The notes below the pieces were generated by a model, which saw nothing but the letters and a program-made list of their open reading frames with translations, searched no databases and was not told where the DNA came from. Shown piece by piece: positions 25,383 to 46,017 of a DNA stretch of 64,000 bases (position 1 is the first letter of the stretch; each line of letters opens with the position of its first letter). The stretch lies in contig JAFYXV010000007.1 in assembly GCA_017557885.1 (NCBI GenBank), positions 148,620 through 212,619 on the forward strand, read 5' to 3'. The position numbers and the translations under genes were made by a program. Source of the stretch: a bacterium (lineage in GTDB: Bacteria; Auribacterota; UBA3054).

Positions 25383-26405
25383 TTATCTGGCGGGGACTTT
25401 GATAACCTGGCCGATCTGCAGCTTGTCGCTGGAGGCGTTGTTCATGGACATCAGTTCCTCCACGGAGGAATTGAAACGCCTGGCAAGTTTCCAATAGCTG
25501 TCGCCGGCCTGCACGGTGTAGGACTGGACGCCGGTGGGGGCGCTTTGGGTCTGGGGGGCGCTCTCGGGCGCGGTCACTACGGAAGATATGCTGGGGGAGA
25601 CAGGGGCGGTCGCCGGAGCGCTGGTGACGGCGGAAGTTTCGGAACTGCCGGCTCCGGGGATCTTGAGGACCTGTCCGACCTTCAGCAAAGAGGTGCGGGA
25701 AATGCCGTTGGCTTCGCAGATGTCGCTGACCTTGAGGCCGTATTTTTTGGCGATCTTGATCAGGTTGTCGCCGGCCTGGACGGTGTAGGTGTTGCCGCTC
25801 GTCACAACGCTGGTCTCAGCATATCCGGAGGAAGAGGAAGTCCCGGAGTTGCCCTGGTAAAGATAGCCGGAGTTGGGGGCGGTCACCACGGTGGTCTCGG
25901 TGGCGGGCTTGGGCTGCAGAGTGCTCTTCGTTTCGGTCTGGCTTACGGGAGCGGTGCCGACGCCCGAGAAGCCGTCGCCGGAGGAAACGTTCGTATCGCC
26001 GGTGGGAGGAGGCAAAACGGAAATGGTCTCGCGGTCCGTCAAAGGTTCCAGAGTCTTGTCGGTGTTGGGGCCCCACACGGAAACGTTGCCGGAGGGCACG
26101 GTATACTGGTCGTTGATGCCCGCCTCGTCCTGATAGAGCGAATCGTCGTTCTGCACTCTCAAAGGCTTCTGCATCTCCACGCTGTCAACGTAGGTGACCT
26201 GGGCCGGAGTGGACTCGGGATAACTGTCGATGTCCTGGTAGGACGTGCCGATGGTGTTGAGGTCTTTCTCAACCAAGGCTTCGATGGTGTCCGGAGAAGT
26301 CAGCTCCAGAGTGACGTCGGTGCGGGGTTCGCTTTTGGCGCACCCGAAGAAGGCTATGCCCACGAGACTGACCGTGAACAGGAAGATAAGGAATGATTTG
26401 TTCAT
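25383..26405 (-). CDS. LysM-domain probable lipoprotein (2x LysM, Ser/Thr/Pro-rich linker)
   Basis: Lipobox-like FFGC; YTVQAGDNLIKIAKKYG and YTVQAGDSYWKLARRFN. Confidence 0.88.
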   Translation of the reverse strand: MNKSFLIFLFTVSLVGIAFFGCAKSEPRTDVTLELTSPDTIEALVEKDLNTIGTSYQDIDSYPESTPAQVTYVDSVEMQKPLRVQNDDSLYQDEAGINDQYTVPSGNVSVWGPNTDKTLEPLTDRETISVLPPPTGDTNVSSGDGFSGVGTAPVSQTETKSTLQPKPATETTVVTAPNSGYLYQGNSGTSSSSGYAETSVVTSGNTYTVQAGDNLIKIAKKYGLKVSDICEANGISRTSLLKVGQVLKIPGAGSSETSAVTSAPATAPVSPSISSVVTAPESAPQTQSAPTGVQSYTVQAGDSYWKLARRFNSSVEELMSMNNASSDKLQIGQVIKVPAR

Positions 26406-27832: not shown

Positions 27833-28924
27833 TCACTGAAGTTTCAAGGTTGCCAGGCCGATGATGGCGAAGATGAGGGCCAGGATCAGGAAACGCGCGG
27901 TCACCCTTGTCTCCGGCCATCCTTGTATCTCGAAATGATGGTGTATGGGGGCCATGCGGAAGATCCTTTTGTGGCGGACTTTGAAAGAGGCCACCTGAAG
28001 GATGTCCGAGAAGGCTTCCATCACGAAGATGAAACCGATTATGAGAAGCAGCACTTCCTTGCGGACCAAAAGCGCCGTGATGCCGATGGCGCCGCCCAGG
28101 GCCAGGCTGCCCGTGTCGCCCATGAAGACCATGGCGGGATGGGCGTTGTACCAGAGGAAGCCCAAACCGGCGCCGCCGATGGCGGCCAAAAAGACCGTCA
28201 GTTCCGCGGCCTCCCTGGCGTAATAGATGTTCAGATAGTTGGCGATGGTGACGTTGCCGGCGCAGTAGGCCAGGATAAGGTAGCTCATGGCGGCGATGGT
28301 CACCGTGCCGATGGCAAGCCCGTCAAGTCCGTCTGTCAGGTTGACGGCGTTGGAAGTGCCGACGATCACAAGCACGGCCAGGATGATGTAGTAATATCCG
28401 AGATTCTCAATAACGGGGTTTTTCAGGAAGGGCACGTAGAAGGGGAAAGAGTCCTTGCTGAAGAATATCAGTATCAGCGCGGCCGCGAGCGCCACCGCGG
28501 ACTGGACCACCAGCTTGGTCTTGCCGGAAATGCCGGCGGCGTTTTTCTGCTTGACCTTGGTGTAGTCGTCCGCAAAGCCCAGGAGGCCTAGCGACAGAAA
28601 GACGCCCAGCGCCAGGAAGGTGTAGAGGGAGAACTGGGCCCAGAGAAGCGTGGAGACGCAGACCGACAGAATGATCAGAAGACCGCCCATGGTGGGAACG
28701 CCTTCCTTGTTCTTGTGCAGAAGATGCAGCGGGGGACACTCGTCGCGCCTGATCTCCTGGCCGATCTTCATCATGTAGAGCCAGCGGATCATGACCGGGG
28801 CCAGAATGAGGCTGATGAGAAGCGAAGTTATGGCTGCGCCGGCGGAGCGGACAGAGATGTACTTGAAGACGTGGAAGACGGAAACGCTTTCCGAAAGCCA
28901 GCCAAAAAAGATGTAGTAAAACAT
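27833..28924 (-). CDS. mraY: phospho-N-acetylmuramoyl-pentapeptide transferase
   Basis: PTMGG, GFADDY, SNAVNLTDGLDGLA, VFMGDTGS, APIHHHFE. Start moved to ATG 28924 behind AGGGGG. Confidence 0.95.
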   Translation of the reverse strand: MFYYIFFGWLSESVSVFHVFKYISVRSAGAAITSLLISLILAPVMIRWLYMMKIGQEIRRDECPPLHLLHKNKEGVPTMGGLLIILSVCVSTLLWAQFSLYTFLALGVFLSLGLLGFADDYTKVKQKNAAGISGKTKLVVQSAVALAAALILIFFSKDSFPFYVPFLKNPVIENLGYYYIILAVLVIVGTSNAVNLTDGLDGLAIGTVTIAAMSYLILAYCAGNVTIANYLNIYYAREAAELTVFLAAIGGAGLGFLWYNAHPAMVFMGDTGSLALGGAIGITALLVRKEVLLLIIGFIFVMEAFSDILQVASFKVRHKRIFRMAPIHHHFEIQGWPETRVTARFLILALIFAIIGLATLKLQ

Positions 28925-28925
28925 T

Positions 28926-29120
28926 TTACCCCCTGTTATTTTTAAAATTTGTCGGCAGGACGTTGCGGACAGCGGTAAAGAATACCGCCGCCCGCAACCG
29001 GAATGCGGATGTAGAGACGGCGCTCTCTTTGGTGTGTGTGTTCGTGTATGGGGAAGGGAAAAGCGTTCCGCCAATCACCGCACACATTCCGTTCCTGCTT
29101 TTAATGTCTATGTTCATCAC
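28926..29120 (-). CDS. putative 64-aa small ORF/leader peptide filling the murF-mraY gap
   Basis: Starts 2 nt after the murF stop and ends 1 nt before the mraY ATG; no recognisable domain and atypical composition. Confidence 0.35.
   Translation of the reverse strand: MMNIDIKSRNGMCAVIGGTLFPSPYTNTHTKESAVSTSAFRLRAAVFFTAVRNVLPTNFKNNRG
28955..29098 (-). ncRNA. putative structured cis-regulatory RNA (three-way junction), unknown family
   Basis: On the minus strand: P1 GCAGGA/TCCTGC, P2 CGGAATGTG/CGCATTCCG, and P3 16-bp hairpin GTTGCGGGCGGCGGTA-TTCTT-TACCGCTGTCCGCAAC. The three non-Watson-Crick pairs are G-U only on the mRNA strand. Confidence 0.55.
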
Positions 29121-29122
29121 GT

Positions 29123-30481
29123 TTATTTTTCCAATGCGAAAAAGTAGTCTTCCAGTTTGTTGGCCCGGGAGCCTTTGAAAAGCACCAGGTCGTCTTTCTT
29201 TATGTATTCCGCCAGTTTTTCCGCGGCGTCGTCGATCTGGCAGACCTCAACGAAGCAGCCTTTGCCCGCGGCTTTGGCGCCCGCGAGATAATGCTCCGCG
29301 TTCTCTCCTATGACGAAGAGGGCGTCCAGGAATTCGCCGGCTTTTTCGCCGGCGGCGTAGTGGGCTTCCCTGGCTTTTTCGCCTATTTCCAGCATGTCTC
29401 CGAGGAAAGCGATCTTCCTTCCTTCGCAGGGCATATCCTTCAGCATGCCAAGGGAAGCGGAGAGAGAATCAGGATTGGCGTTGTAGCAGTCAAGGATGAA
29501 GGTCGCGCCCAGGGCCCTGTGGATCTCGTTGCGCAGCCTTTCTCCCTGCACGCTCTCCAAGCCTTTTTTCAAATTTTCCAAAGGAATATCCGGGATGAGG
29601 GCGAGGGAACCGGCGGCTGCCGCCGCAATGTTGAGGGCGTTGTAGCCGCCCAGCACCGGCACGGTCATTTCCGCTTTGCCTGCGGGAGTTGTCAATTCTC
29701 CCCTAAGGCCTTCGCCGGATTCTTTTGTGATCCTGAACTCCACGTCGCCGCCTTTTCCGAAGCTGATGACTTCCAGGCCCAAATGTTTCGCCATGCCGGA
29801 AAGCTTTTCAAAGAAATCGCACTCGAAGGGCAGGGCCACCCGGCCGCAGGGAGGCACGCCCCGGAAGATCTCGCCCTTGGCTTCCGCGATGTTTTCCCGG
29901 GAGCCAAGGAACTCTATGTGGGCGCTGCCGATGTTGGTGATGACGGCGGCTTCCGGCCTGGCCAGGCGGCTCAAGGCCAGGATCTCGCCCTTGTGGTTCA
30001 TGCCCATCTCCACCACGGCGCAGGAATATTCCTCGCCGAGGCGCAGGAGCGTCAGAGGCAGCCCGATCTCGTTGTTCAGATTTCCTTTGGTCACCAATGT
30101 CTCGCCAAGTGTCCCCAGGATGGAGCCCAGCATGTTCTTGGTGGTGGTCTTGCCGCAGGAGCCTGTCACCGCCACCATGGGTATCTGGACCCTGGCTCTC
30201 TGGTAAGCCGCCAGGTCCTGGAGGGCCTTGACGGTGTCCACAACCCTGTAGCAGGGGAGGAGGCCGCACTCGCAGCTCAGAACGCAGGCCCTGGCGCCTT
30301 TCTCCGCGGCTTTGGCGGCTATTTCCAATTTGTCGCCGCCCTTCAAGCCCACGAAGAGATCTCCTTCTTTCAGTATCCTTGTGTCAACGCACACCTCCAT
30401 GGCCTCCGTCGGCGGGATACCCTGAAATTCGAAGCCCTGGCCCAGCGCTTCCTCTATGTCCTTGTGAGTGAACTTACGCAT
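29123..30481 (-). CDS. murF: UDP-N-acetylmuramoyl-tripeptide--D-alanyl-D-alanine ligase
   Basis: DTR, VTGSCGKTTTK, GNLNNEIGLP, EMGMNH.GEI, DCYNANP, GDMLE, KGSR. Confidence 0.95.
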   Translation of the reverse strand: MRKFTHKDIEEALGQGFEFQGIPPTEAMEVCVDTRILKEGDLFVGLKGGDKLEIAAKAAEKGARACVLSCECGLLPCYRVVDTVKALQDLAAYQRARVQIPMVAVTGSCGKTTTKNMLGSILGTLGETLVTKGNLNNEIGLPLTLLRLGEEYSCAVVEMGMNHKGEILALSRLARPEAAVITNIGSAHIEFLGSRENIAEAKGEIFRGVPPCGRVALPFECDFFEKLSGMAKHLGLEVISFGKGGDVEFRITKESGEGLRGELTTPAGKAEMTVPVLGGYNALNIAAAAAGSLALIPDIPLENLKKGLESVQGERLRNEIHRALGATFILDCYNANPDSLSASLGMLKDMPCEGRKIAFLGDMLEIGEKAREAHYAAGEKAGEFLDALFVIGENAEHYLAGAKAAGKGCFVEVCQIDDAAEKLAEYIKKDDLVLFKGSRANKLEDYFFALEK

Positions 30482-35561: not shown

Positions 35562-35591
35562 ATTATATCCCACTTTGTCCCACAAAGTCAA
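35562..35591 (-). promoter_or_regulatory. dcw sigma70 promoter with MraZ boxes in the spacer
   Basis: TTGACT-N18-TATAAT; the spacer holds GTGGG-ACAAA-GTGGG (10-bp period), matching the established MraZ TGGG repeat. Confidence 0.8.
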
Positions 35592-39671: not shown

Positions 39672-41783
39672 ATGCGTAAGATCATTGCCCTATTAGCGCT
39701 TTTCGCGGCCGGGACCCTTCTGGCCGAACCGGGCCTCATCAGGCTCAGGGGAAAAGTCATAGATCCCAAGGCGCCCGTTCTGGCCGCCCTGGGAAAGAGC
39801 GCCTCGACTCCCGATTCCAAAGGGCGCAGCCAGTATATCGTGCAGCCGAAAGCGCTTTTCAAAAACGAGGAGCGGGCTATGATCAGGGAAGCGGGGATAG
39901 TTTTCCTGGGCTTCATTCCTCCAGACGCTTATATCATTCTGGCGGGAGAGAAGGAGCTGGCGGACCTGGAAAAAATGTTCCCTCTGAACTATTGCTGCGA
40001 ATATCTTCCGGAATTCAAGATCGGCGTGTCGGGCACGAAGCTTTTCTCCCTGACCGATCCGGAAACAAAAGTCCAAATCCGTCTTACGGACATCGACGTG
40101 GCGCCGGAGATCCTGGAGTATTTGCAGAGTCTGAGCGTCAGTGACGCGTCCGTCCTGCGTGAAAATCCTCCCGCCTTAAGCGCATCCTTAAATCACGAAA
40201 CGATAATAAAACTCTCGGCCCGCTCGGAAGTCCTGGACATCAGCGAAGTCCATGAGATCATGCTGATGAACGACGCGGCCCGCTCCGCTTCGATGATGAA
40301 CGTCGCGGCGATGAACACTTCTGGATACACCGGGAAAGGCGTGAAGGTCTGCGTGGCGGACACGGGATTGGACAGCGGAGATCTGAACGATATTCACCCT
40401 GATTTCGAAGACAAAAACGTCACCGGCGTTGTCTCCAGCACCAATTCGGGAAGGACGGACTGGAGCGATCTCCACGGGCACGGTACCCATGTGGCGGGAT
40501 CCGCCGTCGGCACCGGAGCCTATTCCGGCGGACAGTATGCCGGCACCGCACCGGACGCGGATCTGTATTTCATCTGCATCGGCGGCGACGGCAGCTCCGT
40601 TTTCCCTCCGGAATTAATCGATATAAAAAACGCTTACAACAGCGGCGCCAGGGTGATGAACAACTCCTGGGGCGCGTATTCCCCCGCCATCTCCGGAGAT
40701 TACACCCAGGATTCGGAGTTTTATGACTCTGTCTGTCATGATCATCCCGACTTTACGATCCTTTTCGCGGCCGGCAACAACAACAAGAAGATCGACACGA
40801 CTGGCAATTGCACTCTGTCAACTCAAGCGGCCTGCAAGAACGTCATAACCGTGGGCGCTTCGGAAAACGACCGCCCGGAATACACGGCTACTTACGGACA
40901 ACTATTCAGCAATGTGGCTGCTCCCTTCAACACCGACCAGGCGGGAAGCCCCCAGGACGGCACGCAGCAGGGCATGGCCTTTTTCAGCAGCCGCGGCCCC
41001 GCAAAAGACGGCCGCGCCAAACCGGACATCGTGGCCCCGGGAACGTTCATCTGGTCCACGGAGTCGCTTTACGACAGCAACAACAACGGCAACCGCAGCA
41101 GCTATTACACCACCATGTTCGGCACCTCCATGGCGACGCCGCTGACTTCCGGCGCCGCGGCGGACGCCGTGCAGTTCCTCAAGGAAGAAGGTTTCAACGC
41201 TCCCTCTTCCTCGCTTGTGAAAGCGCTTCTTATTAACGGCGCCAGGACCATGGGGACGGGGCAGTATGAAGACTACACGGAGATCCCCGACGAGAGCCCG
41301 AACTGCGTCAACGGTTTCGGACACGTGAACCTTTCCGAAAGTTTTTCTCCCTCAAACGGCAATCTTTTCCTTTACGAGGGAAGCATCAGCGACACCGACG
41401 ATGAAAAGACTTACGTTTTCAGTAAGGCCGACGCCGGACCAATTTCCGCCACGCTGGTCTGGAACGATCCTCCCGGTACTGTCGGCGCGGCGCAGGCACT
41501 GGTGAACGACCTTGACATCGCCGTAAAGTGCGGAAATTACACTTTCTACTGCGACGGCTCTCCGGATCACTGCGACTCCCTTAATAATGTCGAACGTTAC
41601 CGCGAAAGCGAATTCCCGTCTGGCAGCAACATAGAGGTAACAGTCAAAGGCTACAACGTCATGGACGGCCCGCAAACGTTTTCCCTCGTTGTCTCCGGAA
41701 TGGACGCAGCCGTGGCCCCGGAACCATCCCTTGCTTTCGCATTTTTATTTTTCGTCCTTTTGCTAGCCCAAAAAAGAAAATAA
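39672..41783 (+). CDS. S8 subtilase (KP-43-like) with PEP-CTERM anchor, paralog 1
   Basis: Signal peptide, propeptide, VADTG / HGTHVAG / FAAGN / GTSMAT, LVWNDPP...LVNDLD beta domain, terminal APEPSLAFAFLFFVLLLAQKRK. Confidence 0.92.
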   Translation: MRKIIALLALFAAGTLLAEPGLIRLRGKVIDPKAPVLAALGKSASTPDSKGRSQYIVQPKALFKNEERAMIREAGIVFLGFIPPDAYIILAGEKELADLEKMFPLNYCCEYLPEFKIGVSGTKLFSLTDPETKVQIRLTDIDVAPEILEYLQSLSVSDASVLRENPPALSASLNHETIIKLSARSEVLDISEVHEIMLMNDAARSASMMNVAAMNTSGYTGKGVKVCVADTGLDSGDLNDIHPDFEDKNVTGVVSSTNSGRTDWSDLHGHGTHVAGSAVGTGAYSGGQYAGTAPDADLYFICIGGDGSSVFPPELIDIKNAYNSGARVMNNSWGAYSPAISGDYTQDSEFYDSVCHDHPDFTILFAAGNNNKKIDTTGNCTLSTQAACKNVITVGASENDRPEYTATYGQLFSNVAAPFNTDQAGSPQDGTQQGMAFFSSRGPAKDGRAKPDIVAPGTFIWSTESLYDSNNNGNRSSYYTTMFGTSMATPLTSGAAADAVQFLKEEGFNAPSSSLVKALLINGARTMGTGQYEDYTEIPDESPNCVNGFGHVNLSESFSPSNGNLFLYEGSISDTDDEKTYVFSKADAGPISATLVWNDPPGTVGAAQALVNDLDIAVKCGNYTFYCDGSPDHCDSLNNVERYRESEFPSGSNIEVTVKGYNVMDGPQTFSLVVSGMDAAVAPEPSLAFAFLFFVLLLAQKRK

Positions 41784-41787
41784 AATC

Positions 41788-43884
41788 ATGAAAAAATCAT
41801 TGTTTCTCTCGCTTTTTCTGATCTCGCTCGCCGTTGTGGCAGACCCCGGTCCCATCAGGCTCAGGGAAAACGTCATCGACGCCAGGAACGCCGGCATACT
41901 CAGCGTGTCTGAAATGAAATGCGCTCCCACAACTCAAAACGAATACCAGTTCATTGTCCAGCCCGCCAAAAACTTCAGCTTTGAGGAAATGCAGGCCGTG
42001 GAGGACATGGGCATCGTCGTAACGGACTTTTTTCCGCCCAACGCCTATCACATGCTGGCGACCATGGAGGAGCTGGAGGATCTGAAAGCGCGATTCGAGA
42101 TCCTTTACGCCGGGGAATATCTTCCGGAATACAAGACCAGCAGCGCCTCCGCCGAAGCCATGTCCATGAAAAGCGCCTCTTTTTCCGCTTTCATAATTCT
42201 CGCTTCCAGTTCAAAATACCATGAAGTGGAAAAGTTCCTCAAGGAAAACGGTGCGACCAGATGCGAGCTTTTCAGCGAGACCGCCGGAATGATCCGGGCA
42301 GACATCAAAAGAGAGCTGGTTCCGAAGCTTACCCGCCTTAGCGCCGTGGTGAACGTCGAGGAAGAGCCTGAGCTTACGATCGACAACGACGTCGCCAAGA
42401 CAGAAGGATTGATGAACGTCGAGGCGGCCAACAATATGGGCTACACCGGCAAAGGCGTGACTGTGTGCATCGCCGACACCGGGTTTGACAGCGGCGATTC
42501 CAAAACCATCCATCCGGATTTCAAGGGGAAAAAGATCACCGGCGTTGTCTGCAGTTACAACACCTCCAGGACGGATTGGAGCGATCTGAACGGGCACGGC
42601 ACCCATGTGGCCGGCTCGGTCTTGGGAAACGGAACGGTGGAGGAAGGCGTGACCGGCATGGCCCCGGACGCCGACGTTTACTTCATCTGCTGCGGCGGAG
42701 CCGGCAACGGAATAGCGGCCCCCGATGAAACGGACGTCAAGGCGGCTTATCAGGCCGGCGCCCGTATCATGAGCAATTCCTACGGAGCCGGCGCTGACGG
42801 CGAATACAACAGCAGCTCCCGCGCCTGGGACCAGATCTGCAGCAGATATCCGGAATACCTGGTGCTTTTCTCCGCCGGCAACAACAACAAAGACATCATA
42901 ACGGAGGACAACTGCACCATCGGTTCGGCCGCCATCGCCAAGAACGTCGTCACGGTGGGCGCCTCCGAGAACTATCGCCCGGACGTGGAGACGACTTATT
43001 CTATTTTTGGCGCGCAGCCCGGCAGCGTCTTCTACGACGACAAAATAGCTTACCCCGCCAACGGCGTCCAGCAGGGGATGATGATGAACTCCAGCAGGGG
43101 TCCCGCCAAGGACGGCCGCATCAAGCCCGACGTCTGCGCCCCCGGCACCCAGGTCAAATCCACGGAATCGCTTTATGACTCCAAGAACAACGGGACAAGG
43201 CTGAGCTACTACACCCACATGTCCGGCACTTCCATGTCCACGCCGCTTGCCGCCGGCGCCTGCGCCGACATCAGGCAGTATCTTATGGAGAATGGCTTTG
43301 AAAAGCCTCCCGCGTCGCTTGTGAAGGCCGTCCTCCTGAACGGAACAAGGTCTATGGGCACCGGGCAATACAGGGCCAACAATGAAATTCCTCCCTACAG
43401 CCCGAACTGCGTGAACGGCTTCGGCCACGTTGACCTGAAGGAAAGCATCGCTCCCGGCTCAGGCCAGCTTTTCGCCATCGAGGACAGCGTTAAAAACACA
43501 GGCGACGAGATCACCTTCGCCTTCGACAAGACCACCCCCGGACCTCTTTGCGTCACTCTGTGCTGGACCGACAAGCAGGGAAGCGTGGGCGCGGAGAGAG
43601 CGCTTATCAACGACCTTGACCTGGTTGTGACCGCCGGCGAGAACACCTACCTTCCCAACAACTTGAGATCCGGCACCGACACCTTGAACGTCGTGGAAAA
43701 AGTCCGCGTGGAGGATTTTCCGCTTTGCGACAATATCGAGGTGATCGTCAAGGCCGCCAACATTATGCGCGGCCCCCAGATCTTCGCCCTGGCGGTTTCC
43801 GGCGTGGACGAACTGGTGCCCGAACCCTCCTTTGCTTTGCTTGCATTTTTAACCATTCTGCTTCTGGGCAGAAAAACCAAATAA
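41788..43884 (+). CDS. S8 subtilase (KP-43-like) with PEP-CTERM anchor, paralog 2
   Basis: IADTG / HGTHVAG / FSAGN / GTSMST; terminal VPEPSFALLAFLTILLLGRKTK. Confidence 0.92.
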   Translation: MKKSLFLSLFLISLAVVADPGPIRLRENVIDARNAGILSVSEMKCAPTTQNEYQFIVQPAKNFSFEEMQAVEDMGIVVTDFFPPNAYHMLATMEELEDLKARFEILYAGEYLPEYKTSSASAEAMSMKSASFSAFIILASSSKYHEVEKFLKENGATRCELFSETAGMIRADIKRELVPKLTRLSAVVNVEEEPELTIDNDVAKTEGLMNVEAANNMGYTGKGVTVCIADTGFDSGDSKTIHPDFKGKKITGVVCSYNTSRTDWSDLNGHGTHVAGSVLGNGTVEEGVTGMAPDADVYFICCGGAGNGIAAPDETDVKAAYQAGARIMSNSYGAGADGEYNSSSRAWDQICSRYPEYLVLFSAGNNNKDIITEDNCTIGSAAIAKNVVTVGASENYRPDVETTYSIFGAQPGSVFYDDKIAYPANGVQQGMMMNSSRGPAKDGRIKPDVCAPGTQVKSTESLYDSKNNGTRLSYYTHMSGTSMSTPLAAGACADIRQYLMENGFEKPPASLVKAVLLNGTRSMGTGQYRANNEIPPYSPNCVNGFGHVDLKESIAPGSGQLFAIEDSVKNTGDEITFAFDKTTPGPLCVTLCWTDKQGSVGAERALINDLDLVVTAGENTYLPNNLRSGTDTLNVVEKVRVEDFPLCDNIEVIVKAANIMRGPQIFALAVSGVDELVPEPSFALLAFLTILLLGRKTK

Positions 43885-43890
43885 ATTACT

Positions 43891-46017
43891 ATGAAAAAAC
43901 TTTCTCTTATCTTTTTCGCAATGGCTGCCGCGGCTGTTTTCGCAAACCCGGGCGTCATTAAACTCAGCGAGTGCACGATCGATCCCTCCGCGGCGAGCGC
44001 TGCAGCCGCTTCCGTTTTTGAATGCGCACCCACGGCCCTGGGCGAATATCAGTTCATCGTGCAGCCTGAAAAGAATTTCAGCGCTCAGGAATTGAAAACG
44101 GCGGAATCGCTGGGCCTGAAAGTGATCGGGCATCTTCCGCCCAATGCTTACATCATGCTGGGAACCAAGGAGGCCTTGGGCAGACTTTGCGAGACCGAGA
44201 AGATACTTTTCTCCACGGAATACCGTCCGGAATACAAGACAGCCTCTTTTTTACGAAACAAAGTTTCCGCCCTTGGGGAAGACGCTTCGGAGATCTCTCT
44301 GCGAATCGTTTCAACGGAAGCGATCGAGAGCGTTAAAGCTTTTCTTTCCGAAAACGGCGCGACGGAGATCGTGACGCTTTCAAAGAATCCTCCCATAGTG
44401 GAAGCCAAGGTCCCATCCTCTCTTGTTGAAAGATTGGCGAAAAGAAGCGATATCCTGAGAATTGGTCCCAAACCGAAATGCCAGATCTTCAACAACGTGG
44501 CCAAGAGCGAAGATTTGATGAGCGTGGAGCCTCTCAACGACCTGGGCTATACGGGAAAAGGCGTGACGGTGGCCATAGCGGACACCGGCCTGGACAGAGG
44601 AAAAACAAGCGGCAATGACAACGAGCTGCACCCTGATTTCCAGGGCAAGCGCATCTCCGGCATCGTGTCCGAATACAACGTTACCCGCGACGCCTGGAAC
44701 GACATTCATGGACACGGCACCCACGTGGCCGGCTCAGCCACCGGCACCGGAAAATTCTACGGCGGAACTTACGCCGGCACTGCTCCTGACGCCAACCTTT
44801 ACATCGTTAACATCGGCGTCAGCAGAAGAGGCGATGTCGTAACGGTCTCGGAAAAGGACTTCCAGTCGGTTTACGATTCGGGAGCACGCGTCATGAACAA
44901 CAGCTGGGGCGGCATGAATCCCGACGAATACGGCGCCTACACCGATTATACGGAATTGCTGGACACCGTGTGCAACGAATATCCCGACATGCTCGTCCTT
45001 TTCGCCGCCGGCAACAACAACGAGAAGATAGATTACGCCAACAACTGCACCATAAGCCCCCAGGCGGTCGCCAAGAACGTTCTGACCGTGGGCGCTTCGG
45101 AAACTTACCGTCCCGCAGTCTCCGAAACCTACGGCACGACCTTCAGCGTAAAAACCAAGCCTTTCAAAGACGATCCCGTGGCTGCCCCCGCAAACGGCAC
45201 CCAGCAGGGCATGGCTTATTTCAGCAGCCGCGGACCAGCAAACGACGAGCGCTTCAAACCCGAGATCGTGGCTCCCGGAACCTATATCGTTTCCACGGAA
45301 TCCGGCGACGATGCGGAGAACGAGTTGTATCTTCAAAGGAGAAGCTATTACACAATCATGTTCGGAACTTCCATGGCCACGCCGCTGACTTCCGGCGCCG
45401 CTGCCATGACGGTCCAGTATCTGAAGGAGAAGGGCTTCGAGAAGCCCTCTTCGGCGCTTTTAAAAGCGGCGCTTATCCACGGCGCCAGGAGCATGGGGAA
45501 CGGCCAGTACGACAGCTATGTGGAGATCCCCGACGATTATCCCAACAGCGTGAACGGCTACGGCCATATCGACATGAAAAGGAGCCTGAGCAACGCCGTG
45601 ATCTTTGTGGAGGGCGTCGTCAGCAATCAGAATGAAAAAGTGACCTATGTCTTTAAGAAAAACGAGATGGGTCCGGTGAAAGTCAACCTGGTCTGGACGG
45701 ACGCTCCGGGCACTCCCGGCGCCGGCACGGAGCTTGTCAACGACCTTGACCTGCAGTTCTTCGACGGGCTTTACACTTATTTCAACGGCGGTCAGATGGT
45801 CCACAACGAATCCACCAACAACAGCGAATATTATCATGATGACGACTGCTACGCCGGCGACAACCTTGAAGTGAGCGTGCACGGCTACAACATGATGACC
45901 TTCCCGCAGACCTTCGCCCTGGCTATTTCCGGCATGGACGAGGGCCCCATACCCGAACCTTCCTTCCTTCTCACCCTCCTTATCCTGGGCGGACTTTTGT
46001 TCACCCGCAAAAAATAA
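43891..46017 (+). CDS. S8 subtilase (KP-43-like) with PEP-CTERM anchor, paralog 3
   Basis: IADTG / HGTHVAG / FAAGN / GTSMAT; terminal IPEPSFLLTLLILGGLLFTRKK. Confidence 0.92.
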   Translation: MKKLSLIFFAMAAAAVFANPGVIKLSECTIDPSAASAAAASVFECAPTALGEYQFIVQPEKNFSAQELKTAESLGLKVIGHLPPNAYIMLGTKEALGRLCETEKILFSTEYRPEYKTASFLRNKVSALGEDASEISLRIVSTEAIESVKAFLSENGATEIVTLSKNPPIVEAKVPSSLVERLAKRSDILRIGPKPKCQIFNNVAKSEDLMSVEPLNDLGYTGKGVTVAIADTGLDRGKTSGNDNELHPDFQGKRISGIVSEYNVTRDAWNDIHGHGTHVAGSATGTGKFYGGTYAGTAPDANLYIVNIGVSRRGDVVTVSEKDFQSVYDSGARVMNNSWGGMNPDEYGAYTDYTELLDTVCNEYPDMLVLFAAGNNNEKIDYANNCTISPQAVAKNVLTVGASETYRPAVSETYGTTFSVKTKPFKDDPVAAPANGTQQGMAYFSSRGPANDERFKPEIVAPGTYIVSTESGDDAENELYLQRRSYYTIMFGTSMATPLTSGAAAMTVQYLKEKGFEKPSSALLKAALIHGARSMGNGQYDSYVEIPDDYPNSVNGYGHIDMKRSLSNAVIFVEGVVSNQNEKVTYVFKKNEMGPVKVNLVWTDAPGTPGAGTELVNDLDLQFFDGLYTYFNGGQMVHNESTNNSEYYHDDDCYAGDNLEVSVHGYNMMTFPQTFALAISGMDEGPIPEPSFLLTLLILGGLLFTRKK

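Follow-up and report, generated by a model that had tools for sequence, protein, structure and literature searches.

A conserved three-way-junction RNA between murF and mraY in the division and cell wall cluster of one order of Auribacterota

We describe a structured RNA element that lies between murF and mraY in the division and cell wall (dcw) cluster of a bacterium of the Auribacterota (GTDB lineage UBA3054; GenBank assembly GCA_017557885.1, here G000). The sequence analysed, hereafter the window, is a stretch of 64,000 nucleotides (nt) covering positions 148,620 to 212,619 of the forward strand of contig JAFYXV010000007.1, and coordinates given without a contig refer to it. The core of the element occupies 28955-29098 on the minus strand and folds into a three-way junction of helices P1, P2 and P3, with a large C- and A-rich loop at the end of P2. 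It is present in 18 of 18 genomes of its order, a group of uncultured bacteria, in one copy per genome and always between murF and mraY, and was probably inserted at this site in the ancestor of that order. Its structure, strand, conservation, fixed position, single-copy state and distribution are established by the comparisons below. We tentatively read it as a new RNA domain that acts in cis within the polycistronic dcw mRNA, and whose displayed loop would be a docking platform that controls continuation of expression into mraY.

The cluster is ordered mraZ, rsmH, an ftsL-like gene, ftsI, murE, murF, mraY, murD, a gene for a LysM protein, ftsW, murG, murC and onward, and the element sits between the sixth and seventh genes of a cluster that runs from mraZ to ftsZ. 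The murF stop codon, placed by its open reading frame (ORF) and Pfam assignment, is at 29123-29125 on the minus strand. The ATG of mraY is at 28924-28922 and its ribosome binding site (RBS), GGGGG, at 28929-28933 (together 28922-28933, minus strand), which leaves a gap of 198 nt between the two genes. As the remaining junctions of the cluster either overlap (murE/murF) or span 4-31 nt, this gap is the largest in an otherwise tightly packed operon, in agreement with the length of roughly 200 nt originally given for it. It is not free of ORFs: a frame of 63 codons plus stop (28926-29117, minus strand) fills it, with its ATG 5 nt beyond the stop of murF and its TAA separated by 1 nt from the ATG of mraY. 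Upstream of mraZ there is a promoter-like site, TTGACT-18-TATAAT (35562-35591, minus strand), which matches the consensus at 11 of 12 positions and is likely to be the operon promoter. Around the element in the window no promoter-like or terminator-like site was found, terminators having been scanned for at 28700-29400. The element is not itself an intrinsic terminator, as there is no G+C-rich hairpin with a U tract in that interval, and the observation that no U-tract follows P3 is therefore borne out. A terminator-like call lies near the element in just one other genus, and neither promoters nor terminators are conserved across the genera of the order.

The minimum free energy (MFE) fold of 28955-29098 on the minus strand contains the same three helices that had been proposed from the sequence. 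P1 pairs a 5' strand, GCAGGA (29098-29093), with a 3' strand, UCCUGC (28960-28955); the CAGGA of the former is kept across the order, and the latter is placed by both the fold and covariation. P2 (28999-29091) is a long arm with internal loops, closed at its base by pairing of 29091-29083 with 29007-28999, and P3 (28998-28962) is a hairpin of 16 bp. The MFE is -66.37 kcal/mol against a mean of -43.56 kcal/mol for dinucleotide shuffles (z -5.56), with none of 200 shuffles as stable, which disposes of the concern that the fold might be no better than that of shuffled sequence; when flanks are included z is -3.87. The opposite strand folds more weakly (-63.4 kcal/mol, z -4.03, one of 200 shuffles as stable). 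All three pairs in P1-P3 that are not Watson-Crick are, as had been pointed out, G-U on the minus strand, and this indicates the mRNA strand. The interior of P2 did not fare as well, since in place of the proposed AGAGA/TCTCT and GGTG/CACC stems the comparative data favour GGUG/CAUC, GGCG/CGUC and a helix of the CGCUU/GAGCG type.

The element does not belong to a catalogued family. A search of Rfam 15 (4227 models) gave nothing overlapping it in the window at E up to 10 and nothing in six element loci from other genera at E up to 1, in keeping with the earlier remark that it is not a recognised family. A search of the 2.24-Mb genome returned the self-match only. With one model match per genome in 18 genomes, the element is not a dispersed repeat of the miniature inverted-repeat transposable element (MITE) or repetitive extragenic palindrome (REP) kind, a possibility that the original prediction had raised against itself.

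Within the genus the element was found at the murF-mraY junction in all eight other genomes. A covariance model of the genus sequences (R1) gave exactly one match in each same-genus genome, and in the window it matches 28953-29104 at 180 bits. An exact 20-mer scan of species-representative genomes found eight loci, and the same scan found five metagenome contigs. For seven of these eight loci the record titles refer to fore-stomach samples from buffalo, yak, goat or sheep, and for the eighth the title is 'bacterium UBP3_UBA3054'; the genus of the window comes from ruminant fore-stomachs. A review tabulates a placeholder phylum UBA3054 from rumen, digesters and vents (PMC11382960), which may or may not be the phylum of the window.

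In the genus alignment (14 sequences, 12 of them distinct) 98.9% of cells pair and seven pairs have changes in both partners. None of 500 shuffles reached the covariation score of 0.185 (0.094 for shuffled alignments). The double changes are located in distal P3 (five pairs), in the outer pair of P1 (G-C, G-U or A-U) and in one inner pair of P2; the two proximal P2 helices are invariant within the genus. It can be seen that the domain made up of the P1 5' strand and P2 is 90-100% identical between species in which the third codon positions of mraY are just 54-86% identical, and the constraint therefore acts at the level of the nucleic acid.

The nine other genomes of the order represent five genera in four families, and their loci were fetched by a search for MraY. 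In eight of these loci the first call of the murF stop leaves a gap of 190-411 nt before mraY. In the ninth, from genome G012, the first call extended the murF frame through the element and so left only 79 nt; wider cuts of this locus and of that from G010 contain a complete element in both. Each of the other-genus gaps folds independently to the same plan, namely P1, a long P2 with a large loop and the P3 hairpin (z -4.1 to -8.5 in seven of seven folded). P1 is CAGGA/UCCUG across the order, except in one genus where it is AAGGA/UCCUU. With filters off, R1 matches all nine loci at the expected place (E 7e-10 to 0.011; next match 0.38). A second model, R2, was built from the nine other-genus loci only. 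Genome-wide and with strict filters it gave one match in each of these nine genomes and in five of the eight other same-genus genomes, but missed G000; with filters off it recovered all 11 genus loci, making 20 of 20 expected loci with nothing extra. The models thus support, in either direction, homology between the element of this genus and those elsewhere in the order.

The order-wide alignment (A9; 20 sequences, 19 distinct) was made with R2, which in turn came from an alignment (A6) with a hand-set structure. The counts exclude a MAFFT alignment of all genera (A5) and two alignments fitted to the genus model (A7 and A8), because in these P1 or P3 of divergent members is out of register or reverse-strand P3 matches have been taken in. 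In A9, 30 of 36 pairs have changed on both sides, and 89.3% of cells pair, against 69.7% when shuffled and 40-48% when partners are slid; the covariation score of 0.555 (0.200 shuffled) was reached by none of 500 shuffles. Proximal P2 helices covary between genera, the distal P2 helix is the weakest (79.9% paired), and the distal half of P3 covaries freely, with 10 of 11 pairs double-changed. Conservation and covariation, whose absence had been named at the outset as a ground for rejection, are thus both found.

Some of the other-genus loci have features of their own beside the element. In G011 an extra ORF of 60 codons lies between the element and mraY (L053:1272-1500), and in G015 the stretch from the murF stop to the element contains a G-rich tandem repeat, with units such as GGGGA and CACGGAC (L049). 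Just downstream of the element in G010 there is a run of Ns with the same sequence of about 40 nt on either side (L055:1300-1500), which looks like a scaffolding artefact.

In contrast to the 18 genomes of the order, R1 and R2 with strict filters found the element in none of 61 genomes from other orders of the phylum. Direct inspection of the murF-mraY junctions of nine of these also revealed no element, and R2 with filters off gave nothing at any of them. The gap is about 14-80 nt in seven of the nine, as estimated from tblastn alignment ends, and G069 has a poorly structured gap of 135 nt. The MraY query used found nothing in a tenth genome, G034. A gap of about 900 nt is present between murF and mraY in G018, which belongs to another order (L072:578-1498), with no match to either RNA model.

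Three parts of the element stay constant across the order: P1, the base of P3 and, most of all, the terminal loop of P2. The stems show covariation, the junctions, of 0-5 nt, are unconserved, and the internal loops of P2 differ from genus to genus. In this genome the terminal loop is 31 nt long (29028-29058, minus strand; 15 C, 12 A, 3 U and 1 G), and in all 15 sequences examined it has 26-50 nt, of which 13-22 are C, 11-22 A and only 1-3 G. Being nearly free of G, it cannot fold on itself. Its core is CCACACCGAAACCAAACACAAACC, with small variants, in four of the five other genera and a longer variant in the fifth, and this genus has the related core CCCCAUACACGAACACACACACCAAA. The loop is near-invariant between families whose MraY proteins are just about 64% identical, and is the most conserved feature of the element. 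This architecture looks like a scaffold that displays a single-stranded recognition site.

The core motif of the loop occurs once in each genome that holds it, except for G015, which has two owing to one extra exact match. A second locus was considered in G000, where 21 of 22 nt match part of the element (CACACACACCAAAGAGAGC...) upstream of dnaA on the opposite strand. The match is at G000:C6:26241-26262 and G000:C4:35776-35797 (L002 and L003); these 3-kb loci are 100% identical, which means that the region is present twice in the assembly. The motif of the other genera has no counterpart there, and the match was treated as due to chance.

The original prediction had also suggested that a pyrimidine tract in P2 could pair with the RBS of mraY. 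About five pairs are possible in this genome, but they are not kept in the sister species, where the RBS is AAGGA in place of GGGGG, or in the other genera, where the Shine-Dalgarno sequence of mraY is unrelated or missing and lies at varying distances from the element. The broader claim, that the element is a cis-regulator, is retained in part: a strand-specific, selected structure in single copy, always just upstream of mraY, fits action in cis, whereas conserved pairing of the loop with the RBS does not stand. The most economical reading is a domain of the operon mRNA that acts in cis, given the position and strand of the element, the lack of any conserved promoter or terminator for it, and the lone strong promoter-like site upstream of mraZ.

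From these data we infer not only that the element acts in cis but also a docking role for its loop, a class of partner and translation of the ORF, which could be combined as follows. The three-way junction would be a rigid scaffold in which P1 closes the ends, P2 forms a long arm and P3 a hairpin, with a sequence left free to covary. This scaffold would hold out an almost invariant strand of 26-50 nt, about half C, more than one third A and nearly G-free, and the loop would dock a factor that recognises RNA in single-stranded form. The degree to which the loop is occupied would then set how much expression continues from the genes for the cytoplasmic Mur ligases into mraY and the wall and division genes downstream. 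In this genus the ORF, linked at one end to the stop of murF and at the other to the start of mraY, would be translated across the element, and ribosome traffic could unfold or mask it and so tie read-through to translation. Overall, the element probably helps to set the strength with which the downstream cell wall and division genes are expressed.

Which protein might read the loop? The best single guess, and the only candidate binder found, although an improbable one taken by itself, is a termination helicase of the Rho type, for which the element would be either a scaffolded site resembling a Rho utilisation (rut) site or a site that titrates Rho. The RNA-binding domain of Rho was found twice in this genome, which is 92.7% complete. 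Canonical Rho (G000:C1:14413-16368) has 651 amino acids (aa) and a long N-terminal insertion. The second Rho-type helicase (G000:C8:78556-79791; L084) has 411 aa and a basic N-terminus. The RNA-binding fold of this paralogue falls below the Pfam cut-off (23.8 against 27 bits), and over residues 46-409 the protein can be aligned to Rho proteins of solved structure (E 1.8e-84). Clear orthologues of it (54-100% identity) are present in 16 of the 18 genomes of the order, the two that lack one being 64% and 81% complete, and in one of the 61 genomes outside it, namely G069, where the element is absent; three further genomes have weaker second copies. Because both traits may stem from single events in related lineages, the near co-distribution of paralogue and element is a lead only. 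The second Rho gene has neighbours for an Rce1-like protease, RuvB and HisG, with no link to the dcw cluster.

The loop, with its 13-22 C and 1-3 G, is the C-rich, G-poor single strand expected of a rut site. Like rut sites and Rho-dependent attenuators in mRNA leaders, it belongs to a region of an operon that is translated weakly or not at all, in a genome that encodes Rho. It differs in that the strand is just 26-50 nt long and is framed by a covarying scaffold. A typical rut site is a long, unstructured, ribosome-free tract of about 60-80 nt; the loop here lies between strong helices and, in this genus, inside an open frame. Ordinary rut sites are not known to show the near base-for-base conservation of this strand. 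A still more specific version, to which we attach little weight, is that the 411-aa paralogue recognises the C/A-rich strand and together with the element forms a dedicated checkpoint in the division and cell wall operon. Binding of the paralogue might then lead to termination before mraY, or hold the helicase inactive, and in this genus ribosomes translating the bridging ORF might decide the outcome.

Several observations weigh against the docking platform, or against Rho as its partner. By its excess of C over G the loop ranks within the top six 40-nt windows of the operon, but it is not an outlier there. Rut sites are usually long unstructured C-rich tracts, whereas the loop is shorter and framed by stronger helices, and the conservation of its sequence far exceeds what the loose preference of Rho would need. 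Among other single-strand binders, Hfq, CsrA, KH proteins of the KhpA/B type, Jag_N and cold-shock domains were not found in the one metagenome-assembled genome searched, the incompleteness of which (92.7% complete) leaves their absence unproven. Terminator-like sites are not enriched in the cluster (29 observed, 26.2 expected). The ORF is intact in just six of nine other-genus sequences, and translation across the element cannot therefore be a family-wide part of the mechanism. The pairing counts for the order come from an alignment, A9, that was fitted to the structure of the model, which favours pairing. Finally, just one RNA run contained any part of the region (5% of sampled words), and it contributed a single contig of 176 nt inside mraY and nothing on the element.

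An unlikely alternative to the docking platform is that the element punctuates the mRNA. An RNase would cut in or beside it, and the fold would protect the 3' end of the murF message, the 5' end of the mraY message or both, uncoupling the messages for the Mur ligases and the membrane steps. The element does lie between two cistrons of an otherwise packed operon, a short distance upstream of mraY in most genera, and its very stable fold pairs its own 5' and 3' ends. In this it resembles the intercistronic stabiliser hairpins and REP sequences, stable structures between cistrons that could likewise give differential message stability. However, it is a single-copy, complex junction rather than a simple hairpin, and its best-conserved part is a loop of 26-50 nt under strong selection for sequence, whereas protective hairpins are not known to need a conserved loop sequence.

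It is also rather improbable that the element is a stable small RNA acting in trans, either as a sponge or by base-pairing through its C/A-rich loop, after being cut from the operon transcript or made from a promoter of its own. Paired ends and a displayed single-stranded loop are reminiscent of stable non-coding RNAs. In one genus a promoter-like TTGAAC-18-GATAAT ends at the first base of P1, with a run of eight Us after P1, and in another ATGACA-16-TATCAT overlaps P1. Yet the starts predicted from these sites would lie inside P1, no promoter- or terminator-like site accompanies the element in the window and none is conserved between genera. The fixed position inside the operon in 18 of 18 genomes, the want of a second copy of the loop core in carrier genomes other than the extra match in G015, and the failure to find Hfq in this genome all speak against it.

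Processive antitermination, of the type of put of phage HK022 or of EAR, has a close precedent but little likelihood; here the element would modify RNA polymerase and let it transcribe through about 10 kb of genes further downstream. EAR (eps-associated RNA) of Bacillales, from the Bacillus eps operon, is a conserved structured RNA on the mRNA strand between two genes of a long operon for a cell-envelope polysaccharide, and is described there as needed for transcription of the whole operon (PMC7858274). The murF-mraY element shares this placement, in a long operon whose one strong promoter-like site is found upstream of mraZ. It has no Rfam match to EAR or to any other family, belongs to another operon and phylum, and is a three-way junction with a large unstructured loop, and terminator-like sites in the cluster are no more frequent than expected by chance.

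A riboswitch that senses a metabolite, for example a peptidoglycan precursor, and controls mraY would naturally be sought in a strongly conserved three-way junction that P1 closes and that lies immediately upstream of a biosynthetic gene, and in two genera a U-rich tract after P1 could form a platform of the terminator type. We consider it a poor candidate, since the junctions of 0-5 nt are too tight, and too little conserved, to resemble a ligand pocket, the internal loops of P2 differ between genera, and what is conserved is a G-poor terminal loop unable to fold on itself. Neither is there a conserved expression platform, as RBS, spacing and U-tracts all vary.

The small protein encoded by the bridging ORF might instead be the functional unit, with the RNA fold secondary. 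The frame, of 61-64 codons, is open in 14 of 14 genus sequences over five or six versions of the flanks. Its start ranges from 17 nt before the murF stop (in L038, as read from its sequence) to 8 nt past the first base of that stop, its end is 1 nt before the mraY ATG, and its length differences are multiples of three, as expected of frame-keeping indels. In shuffles each flank stays open in 0.46-0.79 of trials, and it is therefore unlikely that all distinct flanks are open by chance (product about 0.004, with lineages treated as independent). Gene callers have listed the ORF in 11 database clusters, all from the same lineage, a count that is biased because only intact frames enter such a database.

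The pattern of substitution nonetheless tells against the protein, which we think very unlikely to be what is selected. The ratio of non-synonymous to synonymous polymorphism (pN/pS) is 0.75-2.2 in the ORF, compared with 0.12-0.53 in murF and 0.03-0.17 in mraY, and the synonymous difference is 0.03-0.24 across the region against 0.17-0.62 in the flanking genes. It can be seen that third codon positions of the ORF are as frozen as the first two, and that residues encoded by P3 change radically while the base pairs are kept. Pfam gave nothing for the ORF, it has no relatives outside the lineage, and in three of nine other-genus loci (as read from the loci) the start is missing or the frame is broken. 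The evidence from sequence comparison thus suggests that selection is not acting on the protein, and the ORF may serve as a worked example of a reading frame conserved for reasons other than its product. A neutral or selfish REP- or MITE-like palindromic insertion without function of its own is scarcely credible, since the sequence occurs once per genome, keeps the same site in all 18 genomes, shows compensatory changes and has a loop that hardly varies.

The element may be of wider interest because of where it lies. The dcw cluster is among the most conserved and tightly packed of bacterial operons, and very little control at the RNA level is known inside it. The mraW RNA motif of Actinobacteria, a candidate cis-regulator, is likewise a conserved RNA structure tied to this cluster; it is located upstream of mraW at the cluster head, whereas the present element lies mid-cluster and has no Rfam match. 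The one literature search made for it gave, among the papers listed, no title or abstract that describes such an RNA element in the murF-mraY intergenic region. We regard the element as a new RNA family of a known general kind, the conserved structured RNA within an operon, with an unusual display architecture and location. Order-wide, this structured RNA of about 140 nt is kept at the boundary between the cytoplasmic steps (murE and murF) and the membrane steps (mraY onward). If read-through, stability or translation is controlled there, this would be a new way to balance synthesis of peptidoglycan precursors against the lipid-linked steps and division. The family has unusually clean covariation and is ready for biochemistry.

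Two further identities were considered for the element and rejected. It is not 6S RNA, which was found elsewhere in the genome, and it is not the RNA of the signal recognition particle (SRP), as no SRP match fell on it at E up to 10. The small-SRP RNA model of Rfam, RF00169, found nothing in any of the 18 genomes of the order, or in four further families, compared with 41 of 61 other genomes of the phylum. Beside a tRNA gene in G000 there is a divergent SRP-like hairpin (G000:C3:62945-63041, minus strand; L083:246-342), which gave an nhmmer E of 0.017 and a cmscan score of 18.8 bits over the full model. It seems that the SRP RNA of this clade has drifted below the Rfam threshold.

Elsewhere in the window, the LysM protein encoded between murD and ftsW (25383-26405, minus strand) has 340 aa and two LysM domains, and is an unusual occupant of that position. 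At 39982-45941 there are three tandem paralogous units of about 2.1 kb each, 62-75% identical, which are probably three related genes in a row.

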